Origin: a virus
Virus record (IMG/VR): IMGVR_UViG_3300025646_000024
Span: 16,264-80,263 of that record
Strand: one strand, 5' to 3'
DNA length: 64,000 nt
Position 1 is the first letter of the stretch; every line of letters begins with the position of its first letter. Both the position numbers and the translations under genes were made by a program. A model generated the notes under the pieces. The model made no database searches and had not been told where the DNA came from. It saw nothing but the letters and a program-made list of their open reading frames with translations. Below are positions 1,033 to 58,140 of this stretch, one piece after another.

Positions 1033-1210
1033 AACCACTACATTCCCAGTTGAAGTTAATGCTATTGCAGCTGTTGCTGGACTAGCTGGAGCACTTGTTG
1101 TGATTCTTTACGCATTCACACGGAACCATCAGTATGAAATGCGGAAACGTATGCGGAGCATCAGGAAGGCTAATGAGTCAGAGGTTGACATGCCCCCGCA
1201 AATCGGTTAA
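1025..1210 (+). CDS. Small membrane protein (single TM helix, basic tail)
   Basis: Hydrophobic AIAAVAGLAGALVVILYAF; ATG overlaps upstream gene end. Confidence 0.6.
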   Translation: MIETTTFPVEVNAIAAVAGLAGALVVILYAFTRNHQYEMRKRMRSIRKANESEVDMPPQIG

Positions 1211-1213
1211 TCT
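1160..1213 (+). promoter_or_regulatory. ATCAG-N5-CTAAT box plus sigma70-like promoter
   Basis: Box 1160-1174; TTGACA 1185-1190, 17 bp spacer, TAATCT 1208-1213. Confidence 0.6.
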
Positions 1214-1239
1214 ACTGGGGTAGTCAAGGGAACCAACCC

Positions 1240-1491
1240 ATGAACGACATCATCACACTCACGCCAGTCAAGCCCAGAACTCGTGAGGTGTATCATTACA
1301 CCACCAGCCGCTGGGATTGGCAAGATGGTAATGTAAACCAGATGTGGATTGAGCAAGTGGATGAAGACCAATACGTTGCCATCGCCCACAATCCAGCAAA
1401 AGGTGCTAGTATGGTGATGTCGAACCCCAGAGGCTATCATGATACGCTACAATGGGTTCGACAGTTCTGTGGTTCCTTCTGCATTCTCTGA
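1240..1491 (+). CDS. Hypothetical phage protein
   Basis: ORF immediately downstream of a promoter. Confidence 0.7.
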   Translation: MNDIITLTPVKPRTREVYHYTTSRWDWQDGNVNQMWIEQVDEDQYVAIAHNPAKGASMVMSNPRGYHDTLQWVRQFCGSFCIL

Positions 1492-1493
1492 TC

Positions 1494-1655
1494 ATGAAAA
1501 ACTACAAAGTTGTTGTAAAAACCTATGATGGTCTGTGTACTATCTGGTATGAAAAGTCTAAAGCAAAGTCTGCAACAGATTTGATTTGCCGTCGTGTGCA
1601 TGAACAACTCTGTGGACTTAACATCAAGCAAATTGAAGTTTCTCTCTCGGTATGA
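1494..1655 (+). CDS. Small hypothetical protein (start revised to ATG 1494)
   Basis: Tightly packed after upstream stop. Confidence 0.6.
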   Translation: MKNYKVVVKTYDGLCTIWYEKSKAKSATDLICRRVHEQLCGLNIKQIEVSLSV

Positions 1656-1828
1656 AACCCTATCCACTTGGTATTGATAATCCGTACAGGATTATGCAAG
1701 AAATTGGTTCTACTAAATGGTCTATTTACAGACTAGAACCATTCCAAAAAGTAGCAACATTCAAGTCACAATTCGATGCCTATGATGCTCGCAGGGCTCT
1801 ACTCAAAGTAGAAGGTTACAATGCATGA
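1652..1828 (+). CDS. Small hypothetical protein, 58 aa (MKPYPLGIDNPY...); not in ORF track
   Basis: Manual translation; ATGA overlaps at both ends. Confidence 0.65.
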   Translation: MKPYPLGIDNPYRIMQEIGSTKWSIYRLEPFQKVATFKSQFDAYDARRALLKVEGYNA

Positions 1829-1962
1829 CTGCTAAGTATATCATTACAGGCATGATTGGCGTTATTCTAATCATTGCCTGGAATGTGTTTCTAATTCATA
1901 GAGATACAGAAATGTTCAAGTCCTATTACTATCCAAATTACCAACAAAATGAACTTCACTGA
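1825..1962 (+). CDS. Small membrane protein, 45 aa (MTAKYIITGMIGVILIIAWNVFLIHRD...); not in ORF track
   Basis: Manual translation; N-terminal TM segment. Confidence 0.6.
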   Translation: MTAKYIITGMIGVILIIAWNVFLIHRDTEMFKSYYYPNYQQNELH

Positions 1963-2218
1963 TCTAAACTTTCAACCACATCCACATTACAAAGATGGTG
2001 TGCAAGCTAAGTACTTTTTCTCTAATGGGTATGGTGTATCTGTAGTCAGGTTTCCTGGTTCCTATGGTTTCCAAAATGATCTGTATGAAGTAGCCATCCT
2101 GAAAGGTACAGAAGATAAATATGATCTAGTTTATGATACACCAATCACTGATGATGTATTAGGTCATCGTGATGAACAAGACATTAACAACATTCTAGAG
2201 GAAGTAGCAGCACTATGA
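1949..2218 (+). CDS. Hypothetical phage protein (FSNGYGVSVV...GSYG...LYEVAIL)
   Basis: ORF; motif recalled from a widespread phage family of unknown function. Confidence 0.75.
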   Translation: MNFTDLNFQPHPHYKDGVQAKYFFSNGYGVSVVRFPGSYGFQNDLYEVAILKGTEDKYDLVYDTPITDDVLGHRDEQDINNILEEVAAL

Positions 2219-2291
2219 GTAACAAACCTTACAACAAGCAACCAAAGCCCAAAACTGTAAAGATCTTCGGTACCTATCATACCTATATTAA

Positions 2292-2348
2292 GCCAGTTAA
2301 GTCACTGGCACAATAACCATACACCAGGGGCTGCAAAGCCCCTATACT
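2292..2348 (+). promoter_or_regulatory. GCCAGT-N6-ACTGGC palindrome + GC hairpin + -10 TATACT
   Basis: Palindrome 2292-2309; hairpin AGGGGCT-GCAA-AGCCCCT 2326-2343; TATACT 2343-2348. Confidence 0.6.
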
Positions 2349-2376
2349 AGTTTCAGTTCCATCGCAACCACCTCCA

Positions 2377-2826
2377 ATGGGTACTCGCTCCAGAATCGGC
2401 ATCGAACTCAAGAACCGCTCTGTGGTTTCTGTGTATTGTCATTATGATGGCTACCCTGAGCACAATGGTAAGATTCTCCAGAATCTGTATACTACCAGAG
2501 AGCAAGTCATCAATCTAATTGATGGTGGCAGTATGTCATCTTTGCATACGTCACATGTATGGGAAACCAAAGCCATGCGGAATGAATCAAATGAAATCAT
2601 CACTGATTCCGCAGGTAATTGGATGTATGAACCCACCAGACCTGAACAACCACTGTATCATACAGAGCGAGGTGAAGAACTAAATGTAGAACACACCAGC
2701 AAAAAGGAATTCCTGTCTGGTAATTCTGGAGAAGAGTATGCTTATCTCTTCACCCTAGATAATCAATGGAAATGCTATAAGATTGGCTGGGGTGATACCA
2801 ACACTCAAGAGATTCCTCTATCATGA
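2377..2826 (+). CDS. Hypothetical phage protein (MGTRSRIG...YCHYDGYP family)
   Basis: Recognisable N-terminal motif recalled from cyanophage early regions. Confidence 0.8.
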   Translation: MGTRSRIGIELKNRSVVSVYCHYDGYPEHNGKILQNLYTTREQVINLIDGGSMSSLHTSHVWETKAMRNESNEIITDSAGNWMYEPTRPEQPLYHTERGEELNVEHTSKKEFLSGNSGEEYAYLFTLDNQWKCYKIGWGDTNTQEIPLS

Positions 2827-2969
2827 ACATTCCAAACTGGCAACACCATTCTAATAAACCAAAAACCACTAAAGGACAATCAAAAGCCAAACTCAAAGCA
2901 CGTAGACAATCACTGAACCACCTCAAAGCCAAGTATTTACAACAGAAAAACACCACTTTCTCACATTAA
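2823..2969 (+). CDS. Small basic protein, 48 aa (MNIPNWQHHSNKPK...); not in ORF track
   Basis: Manual translation; ATGA overlap. Confidence 0.6.
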   Translation: MNIPNWQHHSNKPKTTKGQSKAKLKARRQSLNHLKAKYLQQKNTTFSH

Positions 2970-3018
2970 AATTATACTCTATACTAAATACATCATGTTC
3001 CATCGTTTCTTTCAAAAA

Positions 3019-3357
3019 ATGCGTACTTTCAGACAATTCCTAGAAGAAGCAAAGAAGAAGAAGCCACTATATTCCGAAAAGCAAATCATGAAAGCCCTAA
3101 ACAAACAAGGTGGAATTGGTGGTAAAGCAGTAGAAAAGTATAATCAACAGAATCCAGATAGAGGACCAAGAGAGTATAAACTAGGTGAAGATATTCAACA
3201 GAGACAACAACAACTTAATACAACACAGAGAGAAAGACTACAAGCAGAAAGAGAAAGAGTAGCAAAGTATAAAGCAAAGAGACAAGCAGATGTAGAGAGA
3301 GAAGATGAACAAGATGAAATTATTAAACGAATAGAAATCATTAACAAAAATAAGTAG
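3019..3357 (+). CDS. Late protein with capsid-targeting-like N-terminus (MRTFRQFLEE), coiled-coil
   Basis: CTAAATA late-promoter-like motif at 2984-2990; N-terminus resembles T4 internal-protein CTS MKTYQEFIAE. Confidence 0.6.
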   Translation: MRTFRQFLEEAKKKKPLYSEKQIMKALNKQGGIGGKAVEKYNQQNPDRGPREYKLGEDIQQRQQQLNTTQRERLQAERERVAKYKAKRQADVEREDEQDEIIKRIEIINKNK

Positions 3358-3364
3358 AGTATAG

Positions 3365-3420
3365 TATTAGTTTTCCACAGGTAGAGTATAAATTGTGGAA
3401 AAACCTGTGGAAAACTAATA
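3365..3420. repeat. 18-bp perfect inverted repeat containing three TTTTCCACA DnaA-type boxes
   Basis: TATTAGTTTTCCACAGGT 3365-3382 / ACCTGTGGAAAACTAATA 3403-3420; boxes at 3371-3379(+), 3394-3402(-), 3406-3414(-). Confidence 0.8.
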
Positions 3421-3490
3421 GATTAAAAATATGTTAAAAAATATGTATGAGAGAGATAGAATTATTAAGTATATGTGATAGAAAGAAAGG

Positions 3491-3642
3491 ATTATTAACC
3501 TTATACTGTATGCCTCCGAGAATTATTAACTGTATACTGTATGCCTCCGAGTGTGTCAAGTAAATTATTAACCTTATACTGTATGCCTCCGAGTGTGTCA
3601 AGTAAATTATTAACCTTATACTGTATGCCTCCGAGTGTGTCA
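3491..3642. repeat. Tandem repeat, ~42-bp unit x4 (first and last partial)
   Basis: ATTATTAACCTTATACTGTATGCCTCCGAG(TGTGTCAAGTAA) at 3491, 3522, 3564, 3606. Confidence 0.95.
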
Positions 3643-3687
3643 GAGAAAGTATCTGAAATGTTCGGAGGTGTAGCAGTCTTGGCCCGC

Positions 3688-3716
3688 AGTATATCACATC
3701 ACGCCGAATTTGTCAA
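3688..3716 (-). promoter_or_regulatory. Leftward sigma70-like promoter
   Basis: Minus strand TTGACA-17 bp-TATACT. Confidence 0.7.
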
Positions 3717-3812
3717 GCCCCCCAGCCCAAAAAACCCATAAGGACTCCAAATCATTCCGAGGCCACCAATAAGTATTACTAATATAAGCATTCCAAATCC
3801 CTCCGAGTCCAT

Positions 3813-3868
3813 TCATTAGCATTACTAATCACAGACCCCTTGACATACCACCCAGGATCAGGTATATT
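3813..3868 (+). promoter_or_regulatory. ATTAG-N5-CTAAT box + sigma70-like promoter
   Basis: Box 3813-3831; TTGACA 3840-3845, 17 bp, TATATT 3863-3868. Confidence 0.75.
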
Positions 3869-3895
3869 ACATATGTCACTGAGACACCCCAACCC

Positions 3896-4090
3896 ATGAA
3901 CTACCCAGACGTGGTACAATTCTTCAGCCCATCCATGAAACAAGATGAGATGATTGAAGTATTAACAGAAGAACTTTATAGTAATAACTACAAACTAATG
4001 GAAATGATTATTGAGGAATATGTAACCTCTATGGATAGTGAACAGTTGACTCATTTAGAATGTTTTATCAATAACAACCTGACTGATTAG
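3896..4090 (+). CDS. Small acidic hypothetical protein
   Basis: ORF directly after promoter. Confidence 0.7.
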   Translation: MNYPDVVQFFSPSMKQDEMIEVLTEELYSNNYKLMEMIIEEYVTSMDSEQLTHLECFINNNLTD

Positions 4091-4140
4091 TAACACTTAT
4101 GGCTCAGGGGGTTGACTCCAGCCCCAATTCAGGCCATACT
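4084..4140 (+). promoter_or_regulatory. ATTAG-N5-CTTAT box + hairpin-embedded promoter
   Basis: Box 4084-4102; TTGACT 4112-4117, 17 bp, CATACT 4135-4140. Confidence 0.7.
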
Positions 4141-4163
4141 TGAATCGTTCACCACCTGAACCC

Positions 4164-4439
4164 ATGAAACTCACCACCGAGCAAACTCAAGACCTGCTGA
4201 CTGCACATTGCTATCGAGTTATTGATAACATGGATGCAGATGATTTGTTTAGCTATGCTATGCAACTCATGATGCAATCTTTTGACAAGAATCCTGGCCA
4301 AGGTGATACAGATGTTGAAGGATTGATTTCTGACATCTGGATTGCAGAAGATGAGGATGATGATAGTGCTCAAGAGTTTATTGCTGGTGTTCTAGGTAAT
4401 GAACTCGCAGAGGAGATTGTAAAGACTACTCAATTCTAA
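4164..4439 (+). CDS. Acidic hypothetical protein A1 (paralogue of 5327-5599)
   Basis: Start revised to ATG 4164; clear similarity to A2 (AHCYRVI..M..DDL.SYA.Q.M..SF.KNPG.GD.DVE). Confidence 0.8.
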   Translation: MKLTTEQTQDLLTAHCYRVIDNMDADDLFSYAMQLMMQSFDKNPGQGDTDVEGLISDIWIAEDEDDDSAQEFIAGVLGNELAEEIVKTTQF

Positions 4440-4448
4440 TTATTAACA

Positions 4449-4577
4449 ATGGAAACTAGCTTCGATTTCCCTGAACTAGAGACTGAATGGCAGGATGACA
4501 TGTTAATTCCTGCAGATGATGACTATGAAAGTGAACAACACTTTCAGCAGTTTATTAACTCCAACACTGATTATTGA
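4449..4577 (+). CDS. Small acidic protein B1, 42 aa (paralogue of 5603-5737); not in ORF track
   Basis: METSFDFPELETEWQDDMLIPADDD...QFINSNTDY; conserved in duplicate. Confidence 0.75.
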   Translation: METSFDFPELETEWQDDMLIPADDDYESEQHFQQFINSNTDY

Positions 4578-4582
4578 TTATT

Positions 4583-4723
4583 ATGTCTAAAGCACTTCTG
4601 GTTTCAATGCTTCGCAAAGGTCAAACTGGCAATGAGATTCTCACGATTCTTAACATGCTCGCCAGTGAAGATGAAGACATTAGTAATACTAATGAACCAA
4701 CTCTAGATGAGATTGAGTTCTGA
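4583..4723 (+). CDS. Small protein C1, 46 aa (paralogue of 5743-5871); not in ORF track
   Basis: MSKALLVSMLRKGQTGNEILTIL...EIEF; conserved in duplicate. Confidence 0.75.
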   Translation: MSKALLVSMLRKGQTGNEILTILNMLASEDEDISNTNEPTLDEIEF

Positions 4724-4777
4724 TTAGTATTACTAATCATTCAGGGGGTTGACAAGACCCTGAAAATCGGTTAAGTT
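4721..4777 (+). promoter_or_regulatory. Perfect palindrome TGATTAGTATTACTAATCA + promoter
   Basis: Box 4721-4739; TTGACA 4749-4754, 17 bp, TAAGTT 4772-4777. Confidence 0.8.
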
Positions 4778-4804
4778 ACCTTTGTTCACTTCTGAACCAC
4801 TCCA

Positions 4805-4987
4805 ATGGCTCTGATTCTCGACACCAGCAATCAGTACAACTCTGTTGCAAACCATGACTACAAAATGACATGGTGTGCATCTTGGGTTGACCATTATAAT
4901 TTCCTTGCAGGTATTAGCTTTAATACTGAAGCTGAAACTGCAATGTATAAAGAAGAGATGATGGAATATCTCTGCTATGATGTCTGA
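4805..4987 (+). CDS. Small hypothetical protein
   Basis: ORF between two promoter cassettes. Confidence 0.7.
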   Translation: MALILDTSNQYNSVANHDYKMTWCASWVDHYNFLAGISFNTEAETAMYKEEMMEYLCYDV

Positions 4988-5041
4988 TTAGTATTACTAA
5001 TCAATCGGGGGGTTGACACCTCAACCCCCACCTGCTACATT
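4985..5041 (+). promoter_or_regulatory. Perfect palindrome + hairpin-embedded promoter
   Basis: Box 4985-5003; TTGACA 5013-5018, 17 bp, TACATT 5036-5041. Confidence 0.8.
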
Positions 5042-5063
5042 ATCAATGTTCACTACTGAACCC

Positions 5064-5249
5064 ATGACCAACACTTTTGACCGTGATTCGCTGATTGAAA
5101 CCTATGTTCAGCAGCTTATTGATGGTATGGACATGAAGACTATGGAGCGTATGGTTTATGATACCTTGATTGACAATCTTTCTTCCTATTCTGATGAAGA
5201 ACTGATTACAGAGGTTGAAGAATACAATCCCGAACTGTTGGAGGATTGA
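5064..5249 (+). CDS. Small acidic protein, distant paralogue of the A1/A2 N-terminus
   Basis: Start revised to ATG 5064; LIETYVQQLIDGMDM resembles LLTAHCYRVIDNMDA. Confidence 0.75.
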   Translation: MTNTFDRDSLIETYVQQLIDGMDMKTMERMVYDTLIDNLSSYSDEELITEVEEYNPELLED

Positions 5250-5303
5250 TCAGCATTACTAATCAATCGGGGGGTTGACAGGGATCAATCCCCATGCCAT
5301 ACT
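5247..5303 (+). promoter_or_regulatory. ATCAG-N5-CTAAT box + hairpin-embedded promoter
   Basis: Box 5247-5265; TTGACA 5275-5280, 17 bp, CATACT 5298-5303. Confidence 0.8.
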
Positions 5304-5326
5304 TACATCGTTCACCACACAAGGCC

Positions 5327-5599
5327 ATGAACCTCACTTCTGAACAGGTCAAAGATCTCTGTCAGGCACATTGTTATCGTGTCATTGAACAAATGAACCA
5401 CGATGATTTAATTAGCTATGCTGTACAGATGATGTACATGTCATTTGAAAAGAATCCTGGTGATGGTGACATTGATGTTGAAATGTTGGTTTCTGACATC
5501 TATGTTGCTGAAGATGAAGATGATGATTCTGTGTATGAATTTGTTTCTGGCACAGTAGGTGAAGAGATTGCTGAACAAGTTATTAACTATCAATTCTGA
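5327..5599 (+). CDS. Acidic hypothetical protein A2
   Basis: Start revised to ATG 5327; paralogue of A1. Confidence 0.8.
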   Translation: MNLTSEQVKDLCQAHCYRVIEQMNHDDLISYAVQMMYMSFEKNPGDGDIDVEMLVSDIYVAEDEDDDSVYEFVSGTVGEEIAEQVINYQF

Positions 5600-5602
5600 A
5601 TC

Positions 5603-5737
5603 ATGGACACTTATGATTTCGCTGAACTTGAGGCTGAAGTATTTGACTGGCAGGATGATATGTTGATTCCTGCCGATGATGATGCTGAAGCTGACAAACA
5701 TTTCAGCCAGTTTATTAACTCCAACACTGATTATTGA
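5603..5737 (+). CDS. Small acidic protein B2, 44 aa; not in ORF track
   Basis: MDTYDFAELEAEVFDWQDDMLIPADDD...QFINSNTDY. Confidence 0.75.
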   Translation: MDTYDFAELEAEVFDWQDDMLIPADDDAEADKHFSQFINSNTDY

Positions 5738-5742
5738 TTATT

Positions 5743-5871
5743 ATGTCTACAGAAGTTCTGATTTCGATGCTTCGCAAGGGAAAGAATGGTGAGCAAATTC
5801 TCACTATTCTCGACATGATTACTGGTGAGGATGATACTGCAGAGCCCACATCTGAAGAGATTGAGTTCTGA
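5743..5871 (+). CDS. Small protein C2, 42 aa; not in ORF track
   Basis: MSTEVLISMLRKGKNGEQILTIL...EIEF. Confidence 0.75.
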   Translation: MSTEVLISMLRKGKNGEQILTILDMITGEDDTAEPTSEEIEF

Positions 5872-5925
5872 TTAGTATTACTAATCATTCAAGGGGTTGA
5901 CAAACTCAGCCCCATCCTGTAAATT
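5869..5925 (+). promoter_or_regulatory. Perfect palindrome + hairpin-embedded promoter
   Basis: Box 5869-5887; TTGACA 5897-5902, 17 bp, TAAATT 5920-5925. Confidence 0.8.
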
Positions 5926-5952: not shown

Positions 5953-6216
5953 ATGGCAACTGCAATCGCTCCTGTACATCGTCAGTTTACTAAAGAGCAA
6001 TCTAGTGCTATTCATTCTATTACTATCCCTGGTGATAGTAATGATGTTTTTATTAACTATCATAGCAATGCAGATAAAGTTTACAACTTCACTGCATCAG
6101 ATAGTTACATTGAATTCCTAAGTGATCTTCTCACTAATGATGAGATCCTGAAGAATGTTAGCATTGGTTCTACTATTGCTGATGGGCGACGGACTGAAGA
6201 ACTGAAGTCTGTCTGA
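5953..6216 (+). CDS. Hypothetical protein, possibly KTSC-like
   Basis: SSAIHSI...VFINYHSNADKVYNF pattern resembles the KTSC domain. Confidence 0.6.
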   Translation: MATAIAPVHRQFTKEQSSAIHSITIPGDSNDVFINYHSNADKVYNFTASDSYIEFLSDLLTNDEILKNVSIGSTIADGRRTEELKSV

Positions 6217-6775: not shown

Positions 6776-6850
6776 TAAGCAACGCTAATCAGTCGGGGGC
6801 TCCACGAGCCCCCACCAGCTGCTAGACTTTTCTCAGTTCACACCCAAGCC

Positions 6851-7519
6851 ATGAACTTCGCCCTCACCGCCATCAGCAGCAACGCTAAGACTGGCCCGAT
6901 CCCCACCAGCACTAGCAGCCGTGAGACCTGCCCCAGCACCTGCCCCTTTTACGACAAAGGGTGCTACGCTAAGTCTGGCCCCCAGAACATTCACTGGAAA
7001 AAGGTTACTGAAGGTGAGCGTGGTGTAAACTTTCAAGAGTTTACAACTGCAATCCGTAAGCTTCAGCGAGGCCAACTCTGGCGGCACAATGTATCTGGTG
7101 ATCTGCCACACATTCTGGGTGACATTAACGCACCTATGGTGGAAGCTCTCGCTGATGCAAACCGTGGCCGCAAAGGTTACACCTACACCCACCACATTCT
7201 GAATGATCATAACCTAAAGGTCATTCAGGAAGCTAACAGCAAAGGCTTCACGATTAACGCTTCCACTGAAGACGTAGAGGTGGCTGATGCAGTGATGACA
7301 GAGCACGGTATTCCTGCTGTTGCTGTTGTCAAGTCTGACAAAACAGATAGATTCTACAAAACAGAATCAGGTCGCAAAGTTGTCACCTGCCCCGCTACAA
7401 TTCATGAGAATGTAACTTGTGCAACCTGTAAGCTTTGTGCAAAGTCTGACCGAGACTTTATCATTGCATTCCCTGCACATGGCAATGCAAAGAAAACAGT
7501 GAACGAGATTGTCGCCTAA
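6851..7519 (+). CDS. Cys-rich phage protein, possible Fe-S/radical-SAM-like enzyme
   Basis: CPSTCPFYDKGCYA, WRHNVSGDL, YTYTHH, CPA...CATCKLC...FPAHG. Confidence 0.7.
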   Translation: MNFALTAISSNAKTGPIPTSTSSRETCPSTCPFYDKGCYAKSGPQNIHWKKVTEGERGVNFQEFTTAIRKLQRGQLWRHNVSGDLPHILGDINAPMVEALADANRGRKGYTYTHHILNDHNLKVIQEANSKGFTINASTEDVEVADAVMTEHGIPAVAVVKSDKTDRFYKTESGRKVVTCPATIHENVTCATCKLCAKSDRDFIIAFPAHGNAKKTVNEIVA

Positions 7520-10001: not shown

Positions 10002-10037
10002 TGATCAGCGATACTGATCGATCAGCAGTGCTGATCA
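10002..10037. repeat. Two adjacent perfect ATCAG-N5-CTGAT boxes at the end of the GC-rich island
   Basis: ATCAG-CGATA-CTGAT 10004-10018; ATCAG-CAGTG-CTGAT 10021-10035. Confidence 0.75.
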
Positions 10038-10145
10038 GTGGGCAGAGGCAGTATAAACGGCCCTTATGGGTCGCCGCCCCCCGTACCCGTGGAAAATTCT
10101 AAATACTCAAGCTATAAACCTTTACCAGCGACTTCGATATATTCA

Positions 10146-10601
10146 ATGATTAAAAATAAAAAAATTTTGCCCACAAAATTTGACGGCTACTATGTTTCTG
10201 AAGACGGAAAAATTTTTACTGAGTGGCATTTAGTAAATAATAATGGAAGATTTGGTTCAATCAGAGGAGAGCTGCGAGAAGTAAAATCTCATCCAAGAGG
10301 AGGATGTAATCCAAATGACAGATATTTAGCTGTAAATATTTCATTAAAAAATGACCAAGGAAAAACTATTAAGCAAATCAAATATTACTCACATAGACTC
10401 ATAGCAGAGACTTTTATAGAAAACCCACAAAATTTGAAAGAAGTAGACCATATTGATGGAAACAAACAAAATAACTCAACAACAAATCTGAGGTGGGTAG
10501 ATAGAAAAGAAAACCTAAAATGGATGATAGGAAATACTTTTGGAAAAAATTTTCGACAAAAAAAATCCGAGAACCTTGTAGATTCTCGGAGAAAAAAATA
10601 A
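10146..10601 (+). CDS. HNH homing endonuclease (NUMOD4-like N-terminus + HNH)
   Basis: GYYVSEDGKI; HRLIAETFIENP...VDHIDGNKQNN...NLRW; start revised to ATG 10146. Confidence 0.9.
   Translation: MIKNKKILPTKFDGYYVSEDGKIFTEWHLVNNNGRFGSIRGELREVKSHPRGGCNPNDRYLAVNISLKNDQGKTIKQIKYYSHRLIAETFIENPQNLKEVDHIDGNKQNNSTTNLRWVDRKENLKWMIGNTFGKNFRQKKSENLVDSRRKK
10557..10590 (-). terminator. Intrinsic terminator for the minus-strand kinase gene
   Basis: TCCGAGAA/TTCTCGGA stem followed on the minus strand by a T run. Confidence 0.65.
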
Positions 10602-21000: not shown

Positions 21001-24000
21001 TTATGATTCACTTGGGATGATATATGGAAATATTCAAAGTATTAGCAATGCTTCAGTTTATTGCAAAAGATCTCCTTACATTAAATACACACCAAAGTTT
21101 TTAGATAATCTTGGATTTGTTAGTGATTCAAGTCAAAGAATTATTAATAGTGACTACATTCAAGATTGGTCATATACAATATCATCTACCAGAAATACAT
21201 CAGAGTGGAAAAATCAAGTACTTGATAATACTCATGTATCTGGCTGTAGAGTATTTGGAAAGCACAGAATTGAAAACAAAAAGGAATTTTTTGAGGCAAA
21301 AGAGGAAGTATTTAATAGTTCAGTTATTTTTAAATCTTCTCTAAGTAATTTAGTTAATTTAAATTTAAATTTATCTAAATCAACTTTATATAAAATTGCA
21401 ATAGCTGATGTATCTACATTTTCAGTTTCTGATATTGTGTATGGCAGTTTTAGCAGATCATATGGAATTATTACTGCAATAAATGATAATTACATTACAA
21501 TTAATACAGTCAGTGATACTGAATTTGAACTTGAAGAGTACATATTTAAAGTATCAGTAGAATTTATTCTTGAAAATGATAATATTACTAACTATGGCAT
21601 CTCTTTCTGGAATGGTATTTTTCAACAGCCAGTTAATTCATATTATTTGACAGAATCTGACTATATTCCTGCATTCCCAGTATCATCCACTGACGATATA
21701 GTATTGCAAGAACTTGAAACACCATTTCAAGTTTTAGATACTACGTTAATAGGAAATCAAATAATTTTAACCAAAAATTCAATACCAGTAGTACCATCAG
21801 CTAAAGAGCAACTTATAATTTCAATTCATGGCGTAGTTCAATCACCATCAGCTTATACACTTTCCCAAAATATTTTAAATTTTAATTCAATTACGATAAA
21901 ACCAGAGGATAATCTAATTGTACTATATCATCCAAAATTAAAATCACTTACATTCACTGGTTCTGGAACTAATTACACGATAAATTATACTCCCGCATCT
22001 ACATGCAATTTAGTTGTATTTGCTAATGGAGTTTATCAGACTCATTTATCTCCACTATCTAATTATTCGTTAACTGGTAATCAAATAGTATTTGCTAGTT
22101 CAATTATAAATCCTTCCATAAATCTGGTAGGATGGTACATTGATGAAACAGTAACCTGCTCTATTGTAGATATAGGAGACATCAATAATAGAAAAATTAT
22201 TGATTTAAAACCAGTAGATCTTCAAAAATTAACTGAGTATTTAGAAACCAATTCAGTTAAGTCGCCATCATCTTCATATGAAATAACTAAAGATTTACTT
22301 GAAGGTACAGTATACACAGATAATATTGGTAATGTATATGGATTTGATACAAAATTTATGTATTCAAGTCCAGAATACTCAAAGAGTTATGTTGAAGTAC
22401 TAGATCCAATTATATTTGATGGAAGTTCATACACATTTCCATTAAAGTACATGGATGGAAATTCATATGCGCTAATTAATGGAAAAACTAATTTAATTGT
22501 AAATATAGATGGAAATATTTTAGATCCAAAAAAATATACCATTACTGGTTCAAATATAGTATTTCAAAATTTATATACTTCTGCAAATAAATGCACGATA
22601 ATTGATTTCTTTAGCAATTATATCGCAAATACAACTTCTTCATCTAGGGGAATAATTTTAGATGACTTAAATGTAGTTCAAGATGGAAGCAGAAAAACTT
22701 TTAATTTATCTGATAGAGGTGTTCCTCAATATGTTAAAAATACAGCAGATATATTTACCGTAAAAAATCAAGTATTATTAATTCCTACCACACAATCACA
22801 AACAGTATCTGCAAATAAAATTACATTGCAAGAAGCACCAACTGCATCTGATATTACTCAATTATTTTATTTTAATAGACAATTAAGTCCAGCAAACACA
22901 AAGAATGTAATTTTAGATGCGTGGGAATGTTTTGATGGAGTTGATAAAACTTGGCCATTGACACGAAATGGAATTTTATTTACACCAGTAAGTGTCAATA
23001 ATTTACTGGTTTGTAGAAATGGCGTGTTTCAAATTCCAGGAGTAGATTATACTATTTCTGGCACATACATAACTTTTGATGAAGCACCAGAAATTACTGA
23101 AGATATTGTACTTATCTATTCATATAATAACATCAATCAAAATAGTTATATCACTAGCTTTAGTGCAATCGCTGAAGTATCTACTGTAAACTTAGGATTG
23201 ACTCCACCAAATGTATATGATTTGTTAGTTTCTAGAAATGGAATTATTCAAAATCCAACAGAAGATTTTACAGTATCTGGTTCTACATTAACATTTACTT
23301 CTCCAGTTCAGGTATCAGAAAGTGTCTTTATAGTATATGCTCATGCTTCTGAAGAAATTGGTATTTCTAGTGTTACTAATTCTACCATAGTTTTAGCCAC
23401 TGCAATCACTTCTGGGCAGGAAGATGGTCTTGTACTTTATGTTAATGGAACTCCAAAATTTAACAATAAAGATTATACCATTTCCAATGGAAATACAGTG
23501 ACTCTTCTCGATGGAGTTACAGTAGATCCTGGCACAGTACCATTTGCCATCAAATATGTTACTTCATTCATTGTAGATGATCTTGGAGATTGCCAAAATG
23601 GAATCAAGCAAAAATTCAGACTATTCTACAATCAACAAAACTTAATCGCTTCGGATGTAGCAAGCAATGCAGATATCTTAGTTTCAAAAAATGGAACTAT
23701 TCTATCTCCTGGAGTTCAATACACAATAAACTCTGAGAGAGGCATGATAGTATTTTCTACACCTCTAATCTCTACAGATGTAGTGTTTATGGTTAGAATG
23801 TACAATAATAAACTAATAACTTTATCTGGAAGTGGTTCGCAGTACACTCTAAGTGAAGCTGTAACAACACCAGAAAGAGAACAGTTAATTATATTTGGGT
23901 CTAAACAATGGTGTAGCGAAGAAGCTAATGACTTTGCATTCCAGAACTCAACTACTGTAACTTTTAATGGTATTACTGCAGGTGCAAATCTGTTTGCTAT

Positions 24001-27243: not shown

Positions 27244-30200
27244 ATGCAAAATACAGATCTTAGTTTGCAACCATACTTTGATGATTTTACTGAAGATAAA
27301 AAATTTTATAAGGTATTATTCAAGCCAAACTATCCTGTACAGGCTAGAGAGTTAACCACTCTGCAGTCTATGCTACAATACCAAATTGAAAAATTTGGAC
27401 AGCATGTATTTAAAGAAGGTTCGGTAGTTATTCCTGGTCAAACAGGATACAATACTCAATATCATGCAGTATTAGTTCAACCAACTGTAAACTCTATTAG
27501 TTTTGAAACTATTAGAGAAAATTTAGTTGAAAGGACTGTTAGGGGACTAACAAGTAATGTAGTTGCAACTGTAGTTAATAGTATTAGTGCCGAAGAATCT
27601 GAAAAATCTGTAGCTACATTATATGTAAAGTATACTTCATCTGGCAATATTGTCAACGGAGTTCAGTTTACTAAATTTACTAGTGGAGAAACTTTAGTCG
27701 ATGAATTTAATAATCCAGTAGCAGTGACAGCATCTCAAAACGCTACTGATTATGTTGGAAGTGCCGCATACATTACTGAAGGAATATTTTTTATCAGGGG
27801 ATTTTTTGTAACTGTACCTGCACAAACTATTATACTAGATCAATATTCAAATTACCCATCTTATAAAATTGGGTTATCTGTACAAGAGTCTATAGTAACT
27901 GCAGAAACAGATTCTACTCTATATGATAATGCTGTCGGATCTTCTAACTACACTGCTCCTGGCGCAGACAGACTAAAAATTGATGCAGTATTAACAAAAC
28001 AAGATACTAATTTTGGAACAGACTCGGCATTTATTGAACTACTTAGACTAGATGAAGGAAAATTAGTCGAGCAAGTCGATGCTTCAGTTTATGATGAACT
28101 GGAGAAAAATTTAGCCAGAAGAACTTATGATGAGTCTGGAAACTATACTATTAACAATATTAATCTTAGAATTCGTGAAACATATGACGACGGAAGAAAT
28201 AATGGAGTTTACAAATTGAATGATGCTCTTCCAGATGGAAGAAAAGTATTAAATAGAAATCCAACTTCAGAAGATGGTAGTGCAATTAATGGTTTAGATT
28301 ATTATACTATTGAATTGGATCCACTAAAAGCTTATGTAAAAGGATATGAAATTAATAATACCAGTAAAAAATATTTAACAGTAGAAAAACCTAGATCATC
28401 ATTAGCTTTAAATAACCAAGGCATTTCTTCAATTTTTGGTAATTATTTTACATTGAAAGTGAATACTATTATTGGTGGAGTAATTCCAACAGGAACTACA
28501 ATTCAGCTACTAAGTTCAGGAACTCAAGTCGGTCAATGTAGATCATTAGCATTAATCTCTGGTGGAAGATTATTTGTATGTGATGTTACGATGTTTTCTG
28601 TCATCACTACAAATGAAGCAACACCAAATTTAGTGGTAGGAGATTTTATTTTTGGTTCAAATGGCAGTCAAGGAGTAGTTCATGGAGTAAATGGTAATAT
28701 TATTACTGTAAGGCAAACTACTGGAGATTTTTCTAGTGGCGTATCATTTTCTAATAGTAATAATTCTAGTACATATATTATAAACACTGCAGTAAATAAT
28801 AAGATTGAAAATATAACTTCAATTTCTACATCTGGTGGTGCTACTGCAGAATTAGAGTTAGAAAAAGTTTCAATTTCTGGTTCCTCATTTGCAGTAACAA
28901 GCAATATTTTAACAGGAACTTCTACTCAATTTTCAAGAGATTTGAAAGCTGGCATGAAGCTTGAAATTGGCACTAATATTGCTACACTTCAATCTATTAC
29001 TGGAGAATCTGCAACTTTATCTACTGGAAGTATTGCAGATGGAAATTATTATTCTATTAAAAAATTAGTACCAAAATTAAAAACATTTGGCACTAATTTC
29101 TTTTCTAAATTTCCAAATACAGTTAAATCTACATCAGATTTGACATATTATAAAACTATAAACGAAACTAAAGTAGTAACTTCTGGTTCAGGTGGAGTAG
29201 GAAATATCACAATTTCAACTACTGCGGATTATTCAATTTCAACTGGAGATATTAGTGTATCTAATTCTTCTGGATTTGTGTCATATACAGTAAGTCCTTC
29301 ATCTCAGTCCAATAGTGTAATTTTGGTAGTAAGTGATGCATCAATTGGATCTTCAGTATTAGTTACATATAAAGTACGAGTAAACAACCCAACATTAAAA
29401 GGCAAAACTTCTAATAAATTTACTAGTTTACTTGTAGATAAACAAAAAAATAATACAAATACTAAATATGGAACTAGAATTTCCGATAAAGAAATTTCAT
29501 TAAAATTTTCTGATGTATATAGAATTCATGCAATTCATGAGGCTATATCATCATCGGATGCAAATACTAGTTTATTTGACAGTGTAGTAGTAAATAGTTC
29601 CAATCAAATTCAAGTTGGTGATGTATTATATCATGAATTAATTAGTGCAAGAGTCATTTCTATTAGTGGAAATACTTTATACATTAAGTACTTATCTTCC
29701 AATAAATTTCCAGTAATATTTACTCAGCCAATAGAAATTACAGTTGCAGGAAATTCTAATGTACAAGGAAAATTTGTTACTTCTGTAACAAATGGAAATT
29801 ATAGAGATATTACAAATAACTTTAATTTAGTAAAAAATGATTCATCAGAATTTTATAATATCTCTAAATTAGTTAGAAATGATGGAAGACCAGTTCCAAC
29901 CAACAAATTTATTGTAATATTTGATTATTATATTCATTCCAATACATCAAATGATTTCTATACCGCAAATTCATACAATTTTAGTGAAGAGCCTTTTGCA
30001 ACAGTTCCTACAACATACAACGGAATTGCATATACAGATATTGTAGATTTTAGATATGAAACTGCTGCATCCTCAACTTCTGGGACATCTGGAACTCTAT
30101 CGTCTCCTTTTGTTGAAACCAATTCTGCATTTGACTTATTTAATGCTACTTCACTAGCAAATAGACCTGTTAATGTATTTACCTACCCAGGAGAAATTAT

Positions 30201-54538: not shown

Positions 54539-55072
54539 ATGGCTAATCAATTTACAAAAGATTCTCTTCCAAGAAGACAGCAAGCAAAGAAAAATGGCGA
54601 TATTACATACCAAGGTTATAAGCCATGTGTTAAATGTGAAAATATCGAAAGATATACAAGTAATGGAAGTTGTGTTAAATGCGAAAGGGAAAAAGGATTG
54701 GTTAAACTTTTAGATGATGAATTAATGGCTCAATACCGAACTAAAGAAAAACACGCTAAAAATAGAGAAAGGAGAAGAGAAATTATTAGAGAAAATAGTA
54801 AACGTTATTCTCAAACAGAAAAAGGTAAAATTTGTTCTAATTTAAGTTCTTCTAATAGAAGAGCAAGAGTTCGTAATCAATTGCCAGATACAGCTGATTT
54901 TGAAAAAATTAAACAAATTTACGCAGAGTGCCGTAGAATAAGTGAAGAAACAGGAATTCCTCACGAAGTTGATCATATTGTTCCAATTTCAAAAGGTGGA
55001 TTGCATCATCAAGATAATCTTCAAATATTAACTAGATTTGAAAACCGATCTAAAGGAGGTCAATTATTATGA
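54539..55072 (+). CDS. HNH homing endonuclease with N-terminal Zn-finger
   Basis: PCVKC...SCVKC; HEVDHIVPISKGGLH..DNLQIL...NRSKG; own TATAAATA at 54512. Confidence 0.9.
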   Translation: MANQFTKDSLPRRQQAKKNGDITYQGYKPCVKCENIERYTSNGSCVKCEREKGLVKLLDDELMAQYRTKEKHAKNRERRREIIRENSKRYSQTEKGKICSNLSSSNRRARVRNQLPDTADFEKIKQIYAECRRISEETGIPHEVDHIVPISKGGLHHQDNLQILTRFENRSKGGQLL

Positions 55073-56115
55073 GTTTAGTTGCTATCATAACAGACACCCA
55101 TTATGGGGCTAGAAAAAATTCTAAAGAATTTCATGACTACTTTAATCTTTTTTATACTAATATATTTTTTCCGACTATAGAGAAACATAATATTACTACT
55201 GTATTTCATCTTGGTGATGCATTTGATAATAGAAAATCTATTGATTTTCAGAGTTTAGAGTGGGCTAAAAAAAATATTTTTGATAAACTAAAACATTGTT
55301 CCGTTCACATGTTAACTGGAAATCATGATTGCTATTTTAAAAATACTAATAGATTAAATGCACACAATCTACTATTAGATTCATATGATAATATTACAAT
55401 CTATGATGAGATTTGTGATATTGATGTTCTAGGAAACACTATTACAATGGTTCCTTGGATTAACTCTGAAAACCAATTTAAGGTGATGAACCATTTAGAA
55501 AACACAAAGTCAGAAGTTCTGATGGGGCATCTAGAGATTAATGGATTTGAAGCTCATCCAGGGCATATGTTTGAGGGTGGTCTAGATAGAGATATTTTCT
55601 CTAAATTTAAGCGAGTTTATTCTGGTCATTTTCACCACAAGTCAAGAAGTGATAACATTTACTATCTCGGCAATCCATATGAAATGACTTGGAGTGATTA
55701 TAACGAAGAACGTGGGTTCCATCTATATAATTTAGATTCCAGGAAACTTGAATTTATTCGTAATCCATTTAGAATGTTCAAGAAATTTTATTATGATGAT
55801 GCGAAGAATGATTACACTAAAGCAGATCTATCAGAATATGCCGACAGCTACCTTAAAGTCATTGTAGAAAATAAAAACGATTTGTACACCTTTGATAAGG
55901 TAATTGAAAAATTCTATAATGTTGGAGTTCATGATCTAAAAATCATTGAAGACACTCAGGTATTTTCTGATCGAGATGACCAAGAAGTTGCAGAACATGA
56001 AGATACTCTGACTACTTTGCAACGATATATAGAAGATATGAAGAATAATTATGATAAATCTCAGTTGAAATCTATCATAAAATCTATCTATTTAGAAGCT
56101 TCTGAAATTCAGTAA
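55069..56115 (+). CDS. g47: Recombination endonuclease subunit gp47 (Mre11/SbcD-like)
   Basis: TDTHYG; GDAFDNR; GNHD; SGHFH. Confidence 0.95.
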   Translation: MSLVAIITDTHYGARKNSKEFHDYFNLFYTNIFFPTIEKHNITTVFHLGDAFDNRKSIDFQSLEWAKKNIFDKLKHCSVHMLTGNHDCYFKNTNRLNAHNLLLDSYDNITIYDEICDIDVLGNTITMVPWINSENQFKVMNHLENTKSEVLMGHLEINGFEAHPGHMFEGGLDRDIFSKFKRVYSGHFHHKSRSDNIYYLGNPYEMTWSDYNEERGFHLYNLDSRKLEFIRNPFRMFKKFYYDDAKNDYTKADLSEYADSYLKVIVENKNDLYTFDKVIEKFYNVGVHDLKIIEDTQVFSDRDDQEVAEHEDTLTTLQRYIEDMKNNYDKSQLKSIIKSIYLEASEIQ

Positions 56116-56390
56116 TGTATATACTAACTCTCAAAGACAGAAAAGAAGAAGGTGCATATGCAGTAGAAACTTCTGATGGAAGTAAAGTTTTGCAAATGTT
56201 TGTTGATGAGGACGATGCACTTCGATATGTTGGTCTTCTGGAAGCAGATGGTTTCCCTGAATTACAATTAGTTGAAATTGAGGAAGAAGATGCTGTGACT
56301 GTTTGTGAGAGTTTTGGATATAATTATTGTGTTATAACACCTGATGATTTTGTAATTCCTCCTGATACCATTTCCTATGATTTTATTTAA
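56115..56390 (+). CDS. Hypothetical protein (DUF3110-like)
   Basis: EGAYAV...F..EDDA.RY...LEA. Confidence 0.75.
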   Translation: MYILTLKDRKEEGAYAVETSDGSKVLQMFVDEDDALRYVGLLEADGFPELQLVEIEEEDAVTVCESFGYNYCVITPDDFVIPPDTISYDFI

Positions 56391-58089
56391 GTCTGTAACG
56401 TATTCTAATTTTCTTGCAGTTGGCAATACACCGATTACAATAAACCTAAATGATGCAAATACAACTCTAATAATTGGATCTAACGGTGCTGGTAAAAGCA
56501 CAGTCATCGAGGCAATCGTATTTGCACTGTTCAACAAGTCCTTTCGCAAGGTCAATAAAAACCAACTTATTAACTCTATAAACGAGAAGGACTGTAAAGT
56601 AGACCTAGAGTTCAGTATAGGATCAAAAGAATACCGTATTATTCGTGGACTCAAACCAAACATCTTTGAGATTTGGATTGATGGGAAACTTTTAGATCAA
56701 GTTGCAGCAGCCTCCGATCAACAGAAGTATCTGGAACAAAACATCCTAAAGTTAAATTACAAATCATTTACTCAAATTGTAATTTTGGGATCCAGTACGT
56801 TTGTTCCTTTCATGCAACTTCCTGCAGCTCATCGTAGAGAAATTATTGAAGATCTTCTAGACATTCGCATCTTCTCGACAATGAATGTTATTCTAAAGGA
56901 TCGAATTAAAACCAATAATGACAACATCAAAACCTTTGAGACTGAGATTCAGTTTTTAAAAGAAAAAGTTGGAATGCAAAAAGATCATATTGATTACATT
57001 ACTAGTCAGTCTCAAAAAAGTATTGATGATAAAAAATCTCAAATACTAGATTACGAAGTGCAGATTAAAGATTGCAATGAAACATATGATAAACTTTGCC
57101 AAGAGTTAGAAGTAAAACACCAAGAACTTTCAGCTCTTCCAAAAATTAATATTAAAGACTTAGAGAAATACAAGACTAAATTTTCAACTAAATTATCAGA
57201 CTATACTACTAACATCAAGTTCTATAATGAAAACGATGTGTGTCCAACTTGCCATCAAGACTTAACTGAAGAAGTTAAGGATACTCACATCTCAAAATGC
57301 AATGAAGAAATAGAAAAACTTGAAACTGCAATCCAAGAAGTAGAACTCAAAATTAAAGAGTCTCAGGTTATCATTGATAAATCTCAAGAGATCTTGACAG
57401 ACATAAATGATTTGAATGTAAAAATTGCATCTCAAAATTACAATTGCAAGAGTCTTCAAAAGTTCATTGATGCACTAGATGATGAAATCAAAAAGATCAA
57501 TGAGACAGATAAAGACATTGCAACTGAAAAGCAAAAACTAACAGCACTTGCTTCCGAAGGAGTAGTACTCAAGAAGCAAGTAGATAAAATGAAGAATAAT
57601 AAAACTTACTATGAAATTGTTTCAACTTTATTAAAAGATACTGGAATCAAATCCAAGATCATCAAAAAATATTTGCCCGTGATGAATCAACTTATCAACA
57701 AATATCTCCAGATGATGGATTTCTATGTAAACTTTAATCTTGATGAGAACTTTGAAGAAACTATTAAATCTAGATTTAGAGATGAGTTTAGTTACACATC
57801 TTTCTCCGAGGGTGAAAAAATGCGAATTGATTTAGCATTGATGTTTACCTGGAGAGCAGTTGCCAAACTTAAAAACTCTGCCAGTACAAATTTACTTATT
57901 TTGGATGAAGTATTTGACAGTTCACTTGACACCTCAGGCACGGAAGATTTTCTAAAAATACTTCGTGGAATTGATAGTGACACAAATGTGTTTGTTATCT
58001 CTCACAAAGGTGACATGCTACATGATAAGTTTGAAAAAGTCTTACAGTTTGAAAAAGTCAAGAACTTTAGCAAAGTAAAAGAGCTATAA
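56377..58089 (+). CDS. g46: Recombination endonuclease subunit gp46 (Rad50/SbcC-like)
   Basis: GSNGAGKST; CPTC zinc hook; SFSEGEK; LILDE; ISH. Confidence 0.96.
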   Translation: MILFKSVTYSNFLAVGNTPITINLNDANTTLIIGSNGAGKSTVIEAIVFALFNKSFRKVNKNQLINSINEKDCKVDLEFSIGSKEYRIIRGLKPNIFEIWIDGKLLDQVAAASDQQKYLEQNILKLNYKSFTQIVILGSSTFVPFMQLPAAHRREIIEDLLDIRIFSTMNVILKDRIKTNNDNIKTFETEIQFLKEKVGMQKDHIDYITSQSQKSIDDKKSQILDYEVQIKDCNETYDKLCQELEVKHQELSALPKINIKDLEKYKTKFSTKLSDYTTNIKFYNENDVCPTCHQDLTEEVKDTHISKCNEEIEKLETAIQEVELKIKESQVIIDKSQEILTDINDLNVKIASQNYNCKSLQKFIDALDDEIKKINETDKDIATEKQKLTALASEGVVLKKQVDKMKNNKTYYEIVSTLLKDTGIKSKIIKKYLPVMNQLINKYLQMMDFYVNFNLDENFEETIKSRFRDEFSYTSFSEGEKMRIDLALMFTWRAVAKLKNSASTNLLILDEVFDSSLDTSGTEDFLKILRGIDSDTNVFVISHKGDMLHDKFEKVLQFEKVKNFSKVKEL

Positions 58090-58140
58090 GCAATCCTTAT
58101 GGTCCACCCCATTGACATGGTGGGGTGGACCTGTTACTAT
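58086..58140 (+). promoter_or_regulatory. ATAAG-N5-CTTAT box + hairpin-embedded promoter
   Basis: Box 58086-58100; 11-bp stem GGTCCACCCCA/TGGGGTGGACC 58101-58131 around TTGACA 58112; TACTAT 58135. Confidence 0.8.

Follow-up and report, generated by a model that had tools for sequence, protein, structure and literature searches.

A candidate RbcR-type operator at fixed spacing in small-gene promoters of a T4-like cyanomyovirus contig and before csoS1-rbcLS of its hosts

Boxed promoters in the contig and its relatives

The 64,000-nt stretch analysed here (the window) corresponds to bases 16264-80263 of the 80,263-bp IMG/VR contig IMGVR_UViG_3300025646_000024, which has an estimated completeness of 44%. 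The element in question is a palindromic box, ATHAG-N5-CTDAT, that recurs upstream of the -35 hexamers of small-gene promoters, and an original prediction had proposed that it wires early phage genes to RbcR, the LysR-type carbon-fixation regulator of the host. The window encoded T4-type gp23, gp20 and tail sheath proteins, a gp46-like SMC ATPase and a CobS-like AAA protein, and the major capsid protein of the contig showed 69-72% identity with those of Synechococcus phages S-CREM1, S-H38, S-SZBM1 and S-WAM1. By these genes and this identity the contig is therefore assigned to the T4-like cyanomyoviruses, Kyanoviridae. No close relative of the early region was found in the phage collection with megablast and blastn, tblastn with a 1084-aa protein produced no matches there, and Rfam and tRNA scans of the region returned nothing relevant.

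A total of 15 boxes was found in the window, against 1.35 +/- 1.17 expected from 100 dinucleotide shuffles (largest 5), starting at 1160, 3769, 3815, 4086, 4679, 4723, 4987, 5249, 5871, 6775, 10004, 10021, 29251, 58086 and 60274, and the remainder of the 80-kb contig held one further box. The box at 29251 lies inside a 2100-aa open reading frame (ORF) and is probably a chance match. The distance from the box end to TTGAC was 10 nt for boxes 1160 and 3815 and 11 nt for boxes 4086, 4723, 4987, 5249, 5871 and 58086, in agreement with the centre-to-(-35) distances of 18-19 bp that had been predicted for eight promoters. Chance would place TTGAC at a gap of 10-11 nt for 0.07 of the 15 boxes, while 8 were observed, and the whole composite (box, N10-11 and TTGAC), present 8 times in the window, occurred with a mean of 0.003 in 300 dinucleotide shuffles (largest 1). 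In all eight composites a TANNNT-type -10 follows TTGAC(A/T) at a 17-nt spacing, with a short leader and an ATG behind it. The ATG of the boxed promoters lay 22-28 nt past the -10, and the promoters stand among uncharacterised small ORFs of 42-222 aa. With +1 taken as 7 nt past the -10, box centres fell at -53/-54 at nine promoters and at about -65 at the cobS promoter. The ninth promoter, with its box centred at 6782, keeps the register of the box without a -35, as had been noted; TCCACG occupies the -35 place, TAGACT lies at 6823 and the spacer is 16 nt, not 17. The predicted 30 bp between the cobS box centre and its -35 likewise held, with a gap of 22 nt after box 60274, and the additional copies at 3738-3798, 4679-4693 and 10004-10035 were present.

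All boxes conformed to A-T-N-A-G-N5-C-T-N-A-T, and the dyad extends in its full form to TGAT-N-AG-N5-CT-N-ATCA (15-19 bp). The bases between T2 and A14 number 11, so the LysR-family T-N11-A form named in the prediction is found in every box. Exact matches to the published RbcR consensus, ATTA(G/A)-N5-(C/T)TAAT, start at 3815, 4679, 4723, 4987 and 5871, and the remaining boxes depart from it at position 3 or 13 only. In many cases the preceding gene ends on a stop codon that is part of the box.

The composite of box and TTGAC was found 6 times in S-H38 and 4 times in S-CREM1, always on the coding strand of the small-gene region, once in S-PM2 and not at all in Syn9, P-SSM2, S-CRM01, S-WAM1 and S-SZBM1. 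Between two and eight boxed promoters were present in each of at least 30 uncultured contigs. An IMG/VR scan for the composite, in which chance and real matches are mixed, served as a source of promoters among the matches listed and not for counting; the sample used for covariation and hairpins consisted of 106 distinct boxed promoters from 33 phage sources among the matches listed. Counts of the 15-mer box against a reversed-pattern control were 13/6, 12/6 and 9/3 in complete box-bearing phages, and 2/6 in S-SZBM1. Syn9, which had been put forward for comparison, had no boxed promoter, one 15-mer box against three control matches and no match to the host-derived matrix described below.

S-CREM1, which has the boxes, and S-SZBM1, which is without them, infect the same strain, Synechococcus CB0101, and on this comparison the boxed arrangement is a trait of one phage clade and not of the host. 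Phage gaps between box and -35 clustered at 10-11, 22 and 33 nt and the host gap at 43 nt, in steps of about one helical turn. The 33-nt class represents the distal member of tandem boxes lying 22 bp apart from centre to centre, an arrangement that is common in relatives and would fit a LysR tetramer. Neighbouring boxes in this window lie 17, 31 or 44-46 bp apart, and most promoters are single-boxed.

The host operator and its candidate binder

Host genomes were reached via the psbA gene of S-H38, and rbcL loci were fetched by the RuBisCO large-subunit family from 45 Cyanobiaceae genomes and one Synechocystis; DNA was obtained for 34 loci, and rbcL was located in 32 Cyanobiaceae loci. The phage pattern ATHAG-N5-CTDAT was present at 25 of these 32 loci, about 505 nt before the rbcL start and about 125 nt before csoS1, and ATGAG-N5-CTTAT stood at the same place in 5 of the other 7. 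The comparison with host rbcL and cso promoters that the prediction had proposed thus revealed the phage dyad, at a constant location, in 30 of the 32 readable loci. All boxed host loci fit AT-N-AG-N5-CTTAT; their consensus is TGATNAGC-N3-GCTTATCA (written gTGATNAGC-N3-GCTTATCA), with the flanking TG and CA in common with the phage palindrome. The gap from the box to the host -35 (aaatcgCTTGACg) was 43 nt in 26 of the 30 loci, which places the box at about -86, while its flanks were unconserved across genomes and locus GC ranged from 37 to 69%. In two 1.8-Mb host genomes the strict 19-mer had a single genome-wide copy, located at the csoS1-rbcLS promoter. The Synechocystis salina rbcL locus carried ATCAG-N5-CTAAT 259 nt before rbcL. 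A search of 41 host genomes for the phage-type composite produced 3 matches against 1 for the control, so phage-type spacing is essentially absent there and the boxed phage promoters were therefore not copied from a host promoter.

The Cyanobiaceae cso promoter (loci L149-L181) contained further conserved blocks between box and -35, namely cacta and gAc-gTGAT, the latter about 25-29 nt past the host box centre, and a conserved leader, CGAACATTCCAcccc. The TGAT of the gAc-gTGAT block may be the half-site of a second, weaker RbcR site.

A symmetrised weight matrix was derived from the 30 host boxes only and scanned over phage genomes. The contig gave 11 matches at 10 bits (1.4 expected) and 8 at 12 bits (0.5 expected), and the best of these were mostly known boxes (10028, 6782, 58093, 10011, 5256 and 4093). 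At 12 bits, S-H38 and S-CREM1 gave 7 and 6 matches against 1.9 and 2.0 expected, respectively, while Syn9 and S-SZBM1 gave none against 1.7 and 2.2 expected, respectively. It is thus very probable, from the alignment of the two operators and the matrix results, that a single DNA-binding specificity underlies the phage box and the host cso operator. In Syn9 and S-SZBM1 (L049-L066), matrix matches were below those in mononucleotide shuffles (Syn9, 1 vs 11 at 8 bits), a depletion that could reflect operator avoidance or a bias of this crude null.

A single LysR gene (PF03466) was found in four of five host genomes tested, and the fifth had an additional MetR-like one. Homologues of the host LysR protein at 79% identity carry the name 'RuBisCO operon transcriptional regulator'. 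Among the five LysR proteins of Synechocystis salina, one of 345 aa matched the host protein at 66% identity and the other four at no more than 32%; the DNA-binding domain of the host protein (first 70 residues) showed 80-87% identity to the Synechocystis protein. By these identities the single host LysR is the orthologue of RbcR. NCBIfam has no RbcR-specific model, and all matches there were under the cut-off. In five loci, the 300 nt preceding the host LysR gene were free of boxes, and autoregulation through the box is therefore not supported. On the phage side, the lack of a LysR gene noted for the window was borne out, as no LysR helix-turn-helix (HTH) was detected in the contig, in the complete cultured relatives S-CREM1 and S-H38, or in the 172-kb, 100%-complete uncultured relative G046.

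For RbcR of Synechocystis, a 2026 review (PMC13249358, citing Bolay et al. 2022) quotes the motif ATTA(G/A)-N5-(C/T)TAAT, activating about 90 nt upstream of the transcription start site and repressing at about -10. The consensus given in the original prediction was therefore correct as quoted in that review, and it is the one matched exactly by the five copies named above. According to a preprint, Prochlorococcus MED4 retains RbcR, and control of the cso-rbcLS module by it is inferred there.

Promoter cassettes and neighbouring features

The coordinates of the promoters, their targets and the additional boxes are given in Table 1.

Table 1. Boxed promoters, their target ORFs, associated hairpins and further boxes in the window
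Feature	Coordinates	Strand	Description
P1	1160..1213	+	box 1160-1174 ATCAG-N5-CTAAT; gap 10; -35 TTGACA 1185-1190; 17-nt spacer; -10 TAATCT 1208-1213
P1 target	ORF 1240-1491	+	83 aa; no family
Cluster upstream of P2	3738..3798		three boxes: 3738-3752 and 3784-3798 (degenerate, right half CAAAT); 3769-3783 ATAAG-TATTA-CTAAT
P2	3815..3868	+	box 3815-3829 ATTAG-CATTA-CTAAT; gap 10; -35 TTGACA 3840-3845; -10 TATATT 3863-3868
P2 target	ORF 3896-4090	+	
P3	4086..4140	+	box 4086-4100; gap 11; -35 TTGACT 4112-4117; -10 CATACT 4135-4140
P3 hairpin			GC, around -35; -17.4 kcal/mol
P3 target	ORF 4164-4439	+	DUF7326
Extra perfect box	4679..4693		ATTAG-TAATA-CTAAT; inside ORF 4574-4723; centre 44 bp before P4 box
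P4	4723..4777	+	19-bp perfect palindrome 4721-4739; gap 11; -35 TTGACA 4749-4754; -10 TAAGTT 4772-4777
P4 target	ORF 4805-4987	+	
P5	4987..5041	+	perfect palindrome; gap 11; -35 TTGACA 5013-5018; -10 TACATT 5036-5041
P5 hairpin			9-bp GC stem enclosing -35; -16.8 kcal/mol
P5 target	ORF 5064-5249	+	DUF7326
P6	5249..5303	+	box ATCAG-CATTA-CTAAT; gap 11; -35 TTGACA 5275-5280; -10 CATACT 5298-5303
P6 target	ORF 5327-5599	+	paralogue of 4164-4439
P7	5871..5925	+	perfect palindrome; gap 11; -35 TTGACA 5897-5902; -10 TAAATT 5920-5925
P7 target	ORF 5953-6216	+	PHROG 4357
P8	6775..6828	+	box ATAAG-CAACG-CTAAT; TCCACG instead of -35; -10 TAGACT 6823-6828
P8 hairpin	6795-6813		8-bp GC; persists although -35 lost
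P8 target	ORF 6851-7519	+	DUF7227
Box pair	10004-10035		ATCAG-CGATA-CTGAT and ATCAG-CAGTG-CTGAT; centres 17 bp apart; host matrix 16.1 and 22.9 bits
P9	58086..58140	+	box ATAAG-CAATC-CTTAT (host-type); gap 11; -35 TTGACA 58112-58117; -10 TACTAT 58135-58140
P9 hairpin			8-13-bp GC stem, -35 in loop; -25.2 kcal/mol
P9 target	58164-60314	+	716-aa PHROG-459 gene
P10 (cobS promoter)	60274..60339	+	host-type box ATAAG-ATTAT-CTTAT; gap 22; -35 TTGACA 60311-60316; -10 TATACT 60334-60339
P10 target	60369-61481	+	AAA_5/CobS-like gene

Positions 4130-4755 and 5293-5903 form a tandem duplication of a three-gene module (72.6% identity over 639 nt), which is old, and three DUF7326 paralogues, two in the duplicated module and one at ORF 5064-5249, each have their own boxed promoter. 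The cassettes P3-P8 were 59-77% alike, while the contexts of P1, P2, P9 and P10 were unrelated beyond the motifs. The eight promoters of the prediction are thus not all independent, as P3-P8 are related and include the duplication.

A GC hairpin enclosing the -35, overlooked in the prediction, was present in 7 of 9 promoters here (-10 to -25 kcal/mol) and in 47% of the 106 boxed promoters, where it spanned the -35 in 49 of 50. Hairpins of relatives showed compensatory changes in the outer stems and, in some, a T-tract, while none in this window had one; the hairpin may terminate or stabilise upstream transcripts. Against contigs L005, L006 and L008, the one-gene cassette between two boxes (ORF 4805-4987), from 4733 to about 5030, reached 92-94% identity and its flanks 72-78%, and alignment blocks against relatives break at cassettes. 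The segment has the look of a cassette exchanged recently, with the junctions lying inside promoter cassettes. By these alignments the cassettes (box, GC hairpin around the -35, -10 and short leader) double as recombination joints resembling the promoter-early stem-loop (PeSL) elements of T4-type phages, and the box, predicted to be the entire repeated unit, is one module of them. In the leaders at 4145-4163, 4785-4800 and 5045-5063, a short inverted repeat, GTTCAC ... CTGAAC, was found just before the ATG, without a Shine-Dalgarno sequence, and GTTCAC or GTTCGC was found again in leaders of relatives.

Upstream of P2, a 46-bp direct repeat (3738-3783 and 3784-3829) generates box centres at 3745, 3776, 3791 and 3822. 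In the orthologous P2 promoters of six related contigs, the half-sites were kept, while position 3/13, the N5 and the linker varied. A gene-free block at 3358-3720 precedes P2 and contains a perfect 18-nt inverted repeat (3365-3382 and 3403-3420, with arms including TTTTCCACA), four 42-bp direct repeats at 3490-3652, and a near-consensus minus-strand promoter, TTGACA-17-TATACT, at 3716-3688 directed into the 42-bp repeats. The extra perfect box at 4679-4693 is not present in the paralogous gene copy, and the TGA of the P4 palindrome is the stop of ORF 4574-4723. In the orthologous P8 promoters of relatives both box and -35 were variable. The box pair at 10004-10035 stands directly before an HNH endonuclease ORF (10038-10601) with no TTGAC downstream, and it is kept in G046 (21597-21628).

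The P9 box overlaps the stop of the gp46-like gene and, at the orthologous promoter, is kept in G046, L222, L249 and S-H38, degenerate in S-CREM1 and absent from S-SZBM1. The gene behind it had been labelled VWA; this was not upheld, as its product matches PHROG 459 'peptidase' and has no Pfam VWA match. The P10 box sits in the final codons of the upstream gene (N-K-I-I-L-S...), and in Syn9 the peptide is kept by other codons and the box is lost. At the same promoter, AAAT(C/T)GCTTGAC (window 60304-60316) occurs once per phage genome and always at the cobS promoter, here and in S-H38, S-CREM1 and Syn9. It is also the -35 context of the host cso promoter, aaatcgCTTGACg, and in phages it encodes the C-terminus of the upstream gene, Q-I-A-stop; coincidence, coding constraint and a shared promoter design are not separable here.

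Interpretation, rival explanations and known systems

The box reads as a protein site and not a hairpin, because mirrored variable positions do not covary in the 106 boxed promoters. Positions 3/13 were complementary 31 times (29.7 expected) and positions 0/16 were complementary 44 times (54.5 expected). In orthologous promoters of relatives, AT-AG and CT-AT were kept and the sequence between and beside them drifted, the signature expected of a dimeric DNA-binding protein. An RNA or single-stranded DNA hairpin, for example the terminator of the upstream gene, could be imagined from the three perfect copies, in which a stem of 8 AT-rich base pairs is possible (-5.7 kcal/mol, z -6.5 to -9.8), and from the frequent overlap of the box with the upstream stop codon. 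It is given hardly any credence, since 4 of 9 boxes fold at 0 to -1.2 kcal/mol, covariation is lacking, no U-tract follows the box, and the terminator-like element of the cassettes is the separate GC hairpin. An UP element is an A/T-tract at -40 to -60 without dyad symmetry that is read by the C-terminal domain of the alpha subunit. The invariant G and C at positions 5 and 11, the symmetric half-sites and the tolerated GC-rich N5 spacers rule it out for this box.

As the phage dyad very probably has the specificity of the single conserved csoS1-rbcLS operator of the hosts, it is most likely bound by RbcR. That RbcR also acts on the boxed phage promoters is a reading to which we incline only a little beyond even. 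Sigma-70-type promoters would serve both the hyperplastic small-gene region and the stretch that begins at the gp46-like gene and continues over the PHROG-459 gene to cobS, and host RbcR would bind the phage dyads upon DNA entry. The constant distance of the dyads to the -35, in whole helical turns, implies that a protein bound to them would act on RNA polymerase at these promoters. The boxed gene set would thereby be gated by the carbon-fixation state of the host, sensed through the metabolite effectors of RbcR. We infer RbcR as the binder on either DNA, the early timing of the promoters and the direction of the effect from sequence, and we lean towards activation. P8, the promoter without a -35, has a near-best host-type box, with 22.6 bits under the host-derived matrix, second in the window to the match at 10028 (22.9 bits).

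Several observations weigh against the action of RbcR on these promoters. In the classic LysR layout a recognition site lies near -65 and an activation site near -35. The phage boxes lie at about -54 or -65, compared with about -86 in hosts and about -90 for the activation reported in Synechocystis; no characterised or host RbcR site is at -54, and phage-type spacing is essentially absent from the 41 host genomes. Consensus TTGAC(A/T) and 17-nt spacers are found at nine of the ten boxed promoters, as at the unboxed promoters of the contig, so that there is no obvious call for an activator. With the host matrix the three perfect phage palindromes reached no more than 7-8 bits, as they differ from host boxes at positions 3/13 and 6/10, which carry little information. 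Part of the recurrence of the box is common descent, because P3-P8 are related cassettes. Conservation of the cobS box is confounded, because it lies in coding sequence, though the Syn9 comparison is suggestive. The RbcR motif itself is a consensus from regulated promoters, quoted second-hand in the review PMC13249358. Of the predicted wiring to host RbcR, the shared dyad at csoS1-rbcLS and the essentially single host LysR held, and the position of the boxes, unlike that of host or characterised sites, did not fit.

The same specificity might instead belong to another protein, either a phage protein that is virion-borne or early and, for example, shuts early promoters, or another host regulator that controls cso. 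Phage-encoded repressors usually act from operator-like palindromes placed beside the -35 of strong early promoters, which would suit the consensus core elements and the location of the box at -54 and not -86. Several uncharacterised small proteins are under box control, including the three DUF7326 paralogues, and the picocyanobacterial host box is itself a candidate RbcR operator. We regard this alternative as unlikely, since no DNA-binding domain was found in ten small ORFs with Pfam and PHROG (the sole hint, a sub-threshold Sigma70_r2 match with E 0.048 on a DUF7326 protein, was not trusted) and no LysR HTH was found in the phages of the group examined. It would also make identity with the single cso operator of the hosts, TG and CA included, a coincidence or mimicry, and would set aside the T-N11-A form, the match to the Synechocystis RbcR motif as quoted in the review, and the 80-87% identical DNA-binding domain. 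The boxes could also serve mainly as decoys, with about 10-13 copies per genome, multiplied by replication, drawing RbcR off the host operator and lowering carboxysome and RuBisCO synthesis, and with control of phage promoters secondary. One strict site in the two 1.8-Mb hosts against 9-13 15-mer boxes in box-bearing phage genomes, and the promoter-less boxes at 3738-3798, 4679 and 10004-10035, would agree with this, and according to one paper RbcR is essential and its sites may be saturated in Synechocystis, and inhibition of CO2 fixation by cyanophages is known. A decoy would have no need of a fixed distance and helical phase to the -35, yet 8 of the 15 boxes lie at a gap of 10-11 nt; host transcription is largely shut down anyway in T4-like infections, and the 15-mer count is only about two- to three-fold over the reversed-pattern control. 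A role mainly as decoys is accordingly considered distinctly improbable.

Little weight is likewise given to the box as a piece of a mobile PeSL-type cassette, acting as a recombination joint or UP-like element with no sequence-specific regulator. The likeness of P3-P8, the duplicated three-gene module and the box-bounded cassette at 92-94% identity would all follow from it, as would the GC hairpins around the -35 here and in relatives, with compensatory changes and some T-tracts, and PeSLs have been described as a stem-loop with a sigma-70 promoter in T4-type hyperplastic regions. It is opposed by the same spacing in the unrelated contexts of P1, P2 and P9 and in phages with about 70% major capsid identity, and by an invariant part that consists of two 4-base half-sites amid drifting surroundings and tolerated GC-rich spacers, and it leaves the identity with the host cso operator unexplained. 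For RbcR acting on the phage promoters, a fuller version would combine both functions, with high-affinity RbcR operators of one cyanomyovirus clade, one turn upstream of the -35, gating early genes by the state of the Calvin cycle and the replicated operators stripping the host of RbcR; this combination we consider rather unlikely.

If RbcR does act on these promoters, the carbon-fixation regulator would be a third link to host state beside PhoB (phosphate) and, probably, NtcA (nitrogen), and the start of infection would be tied to the state of the Calvin cycle in major aquatic CO2 fixers. Decoying of RbcR, if true, would shut down the synthesis of carboxysomes and RuBisCO, and the known inhibition of CO2 fixation would then have a DNA-decoy route. 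On the host side, the analysis yields a well-delimited candidate for the RbcR operator before csoS1-rbcLS of Prochlorococcus, marine Synechococcus and Cyanobium, at a constant position of -86, which is useful independently, as these organisms are genetically hard to study. The cultured pair S-CREM1 (with boxes) and S-SZBM1 (without) on CB0101 makes the RbcR idea testable. A full-text literature search on cyanophage and RbcR, judged by titles, match counts and some passages, showed no paper linking both.

Compared with known RbcR/CbbR operators (Synechocystis RbcR, Bolay et al. 2022 as quoted in PMC13249358; Anabaena PacR), the phage boxes share the T-N11-A dyad, with five exact matches to the quoted motif, and the host csoS1-rbcLS dyad at about -86 is close to the reported activating position of about -90. 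They differ in lying at about -54 or -65 beside a consensus -35 and in numbering up to about a dozen candidate sites per genome, whereas the small host genomes have one strict site. PhoB boxes in cyanophage promoters (P-SSM2 pstS; S-PM2d by electrophoretic mobility shift assay, Rihtman et al. 2024, PMC10976474) and NtcA sites predicted in cyanophage promoters (Sullivan et al. 2010, PMC3037559) likewise present a lytic cyanomyovirus with operators of a host nutrient or metabolism sensor, so that phage genes track host physiology. Those cases involve a few auxiliary metabolic genes, whereas here a putative LysR carbon-fixation regulator, a rigid distance to the -35 and many small early-type genes are found in one clade (S-H38, S-CREM1 and freshwater/estuarine relatives). 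The PeSL cassettes of T4-type phages (Arbiol et al. 2010, PMC2839356; Comeau et al. 2014, PMC4122927) resemble the arrangement in the repeated sigma-70-like promoter and stem-loop between small ORFans of a hyperplastic region and in exchange or duplication junctions within cassettes. In the cassettes described here, the stem-loop encloses the -35, whereas that of PeSLs lies upstream, the window shows no T-tract, and a specific dyad in common with the host operator takes the place of the AT-rich upstream part.

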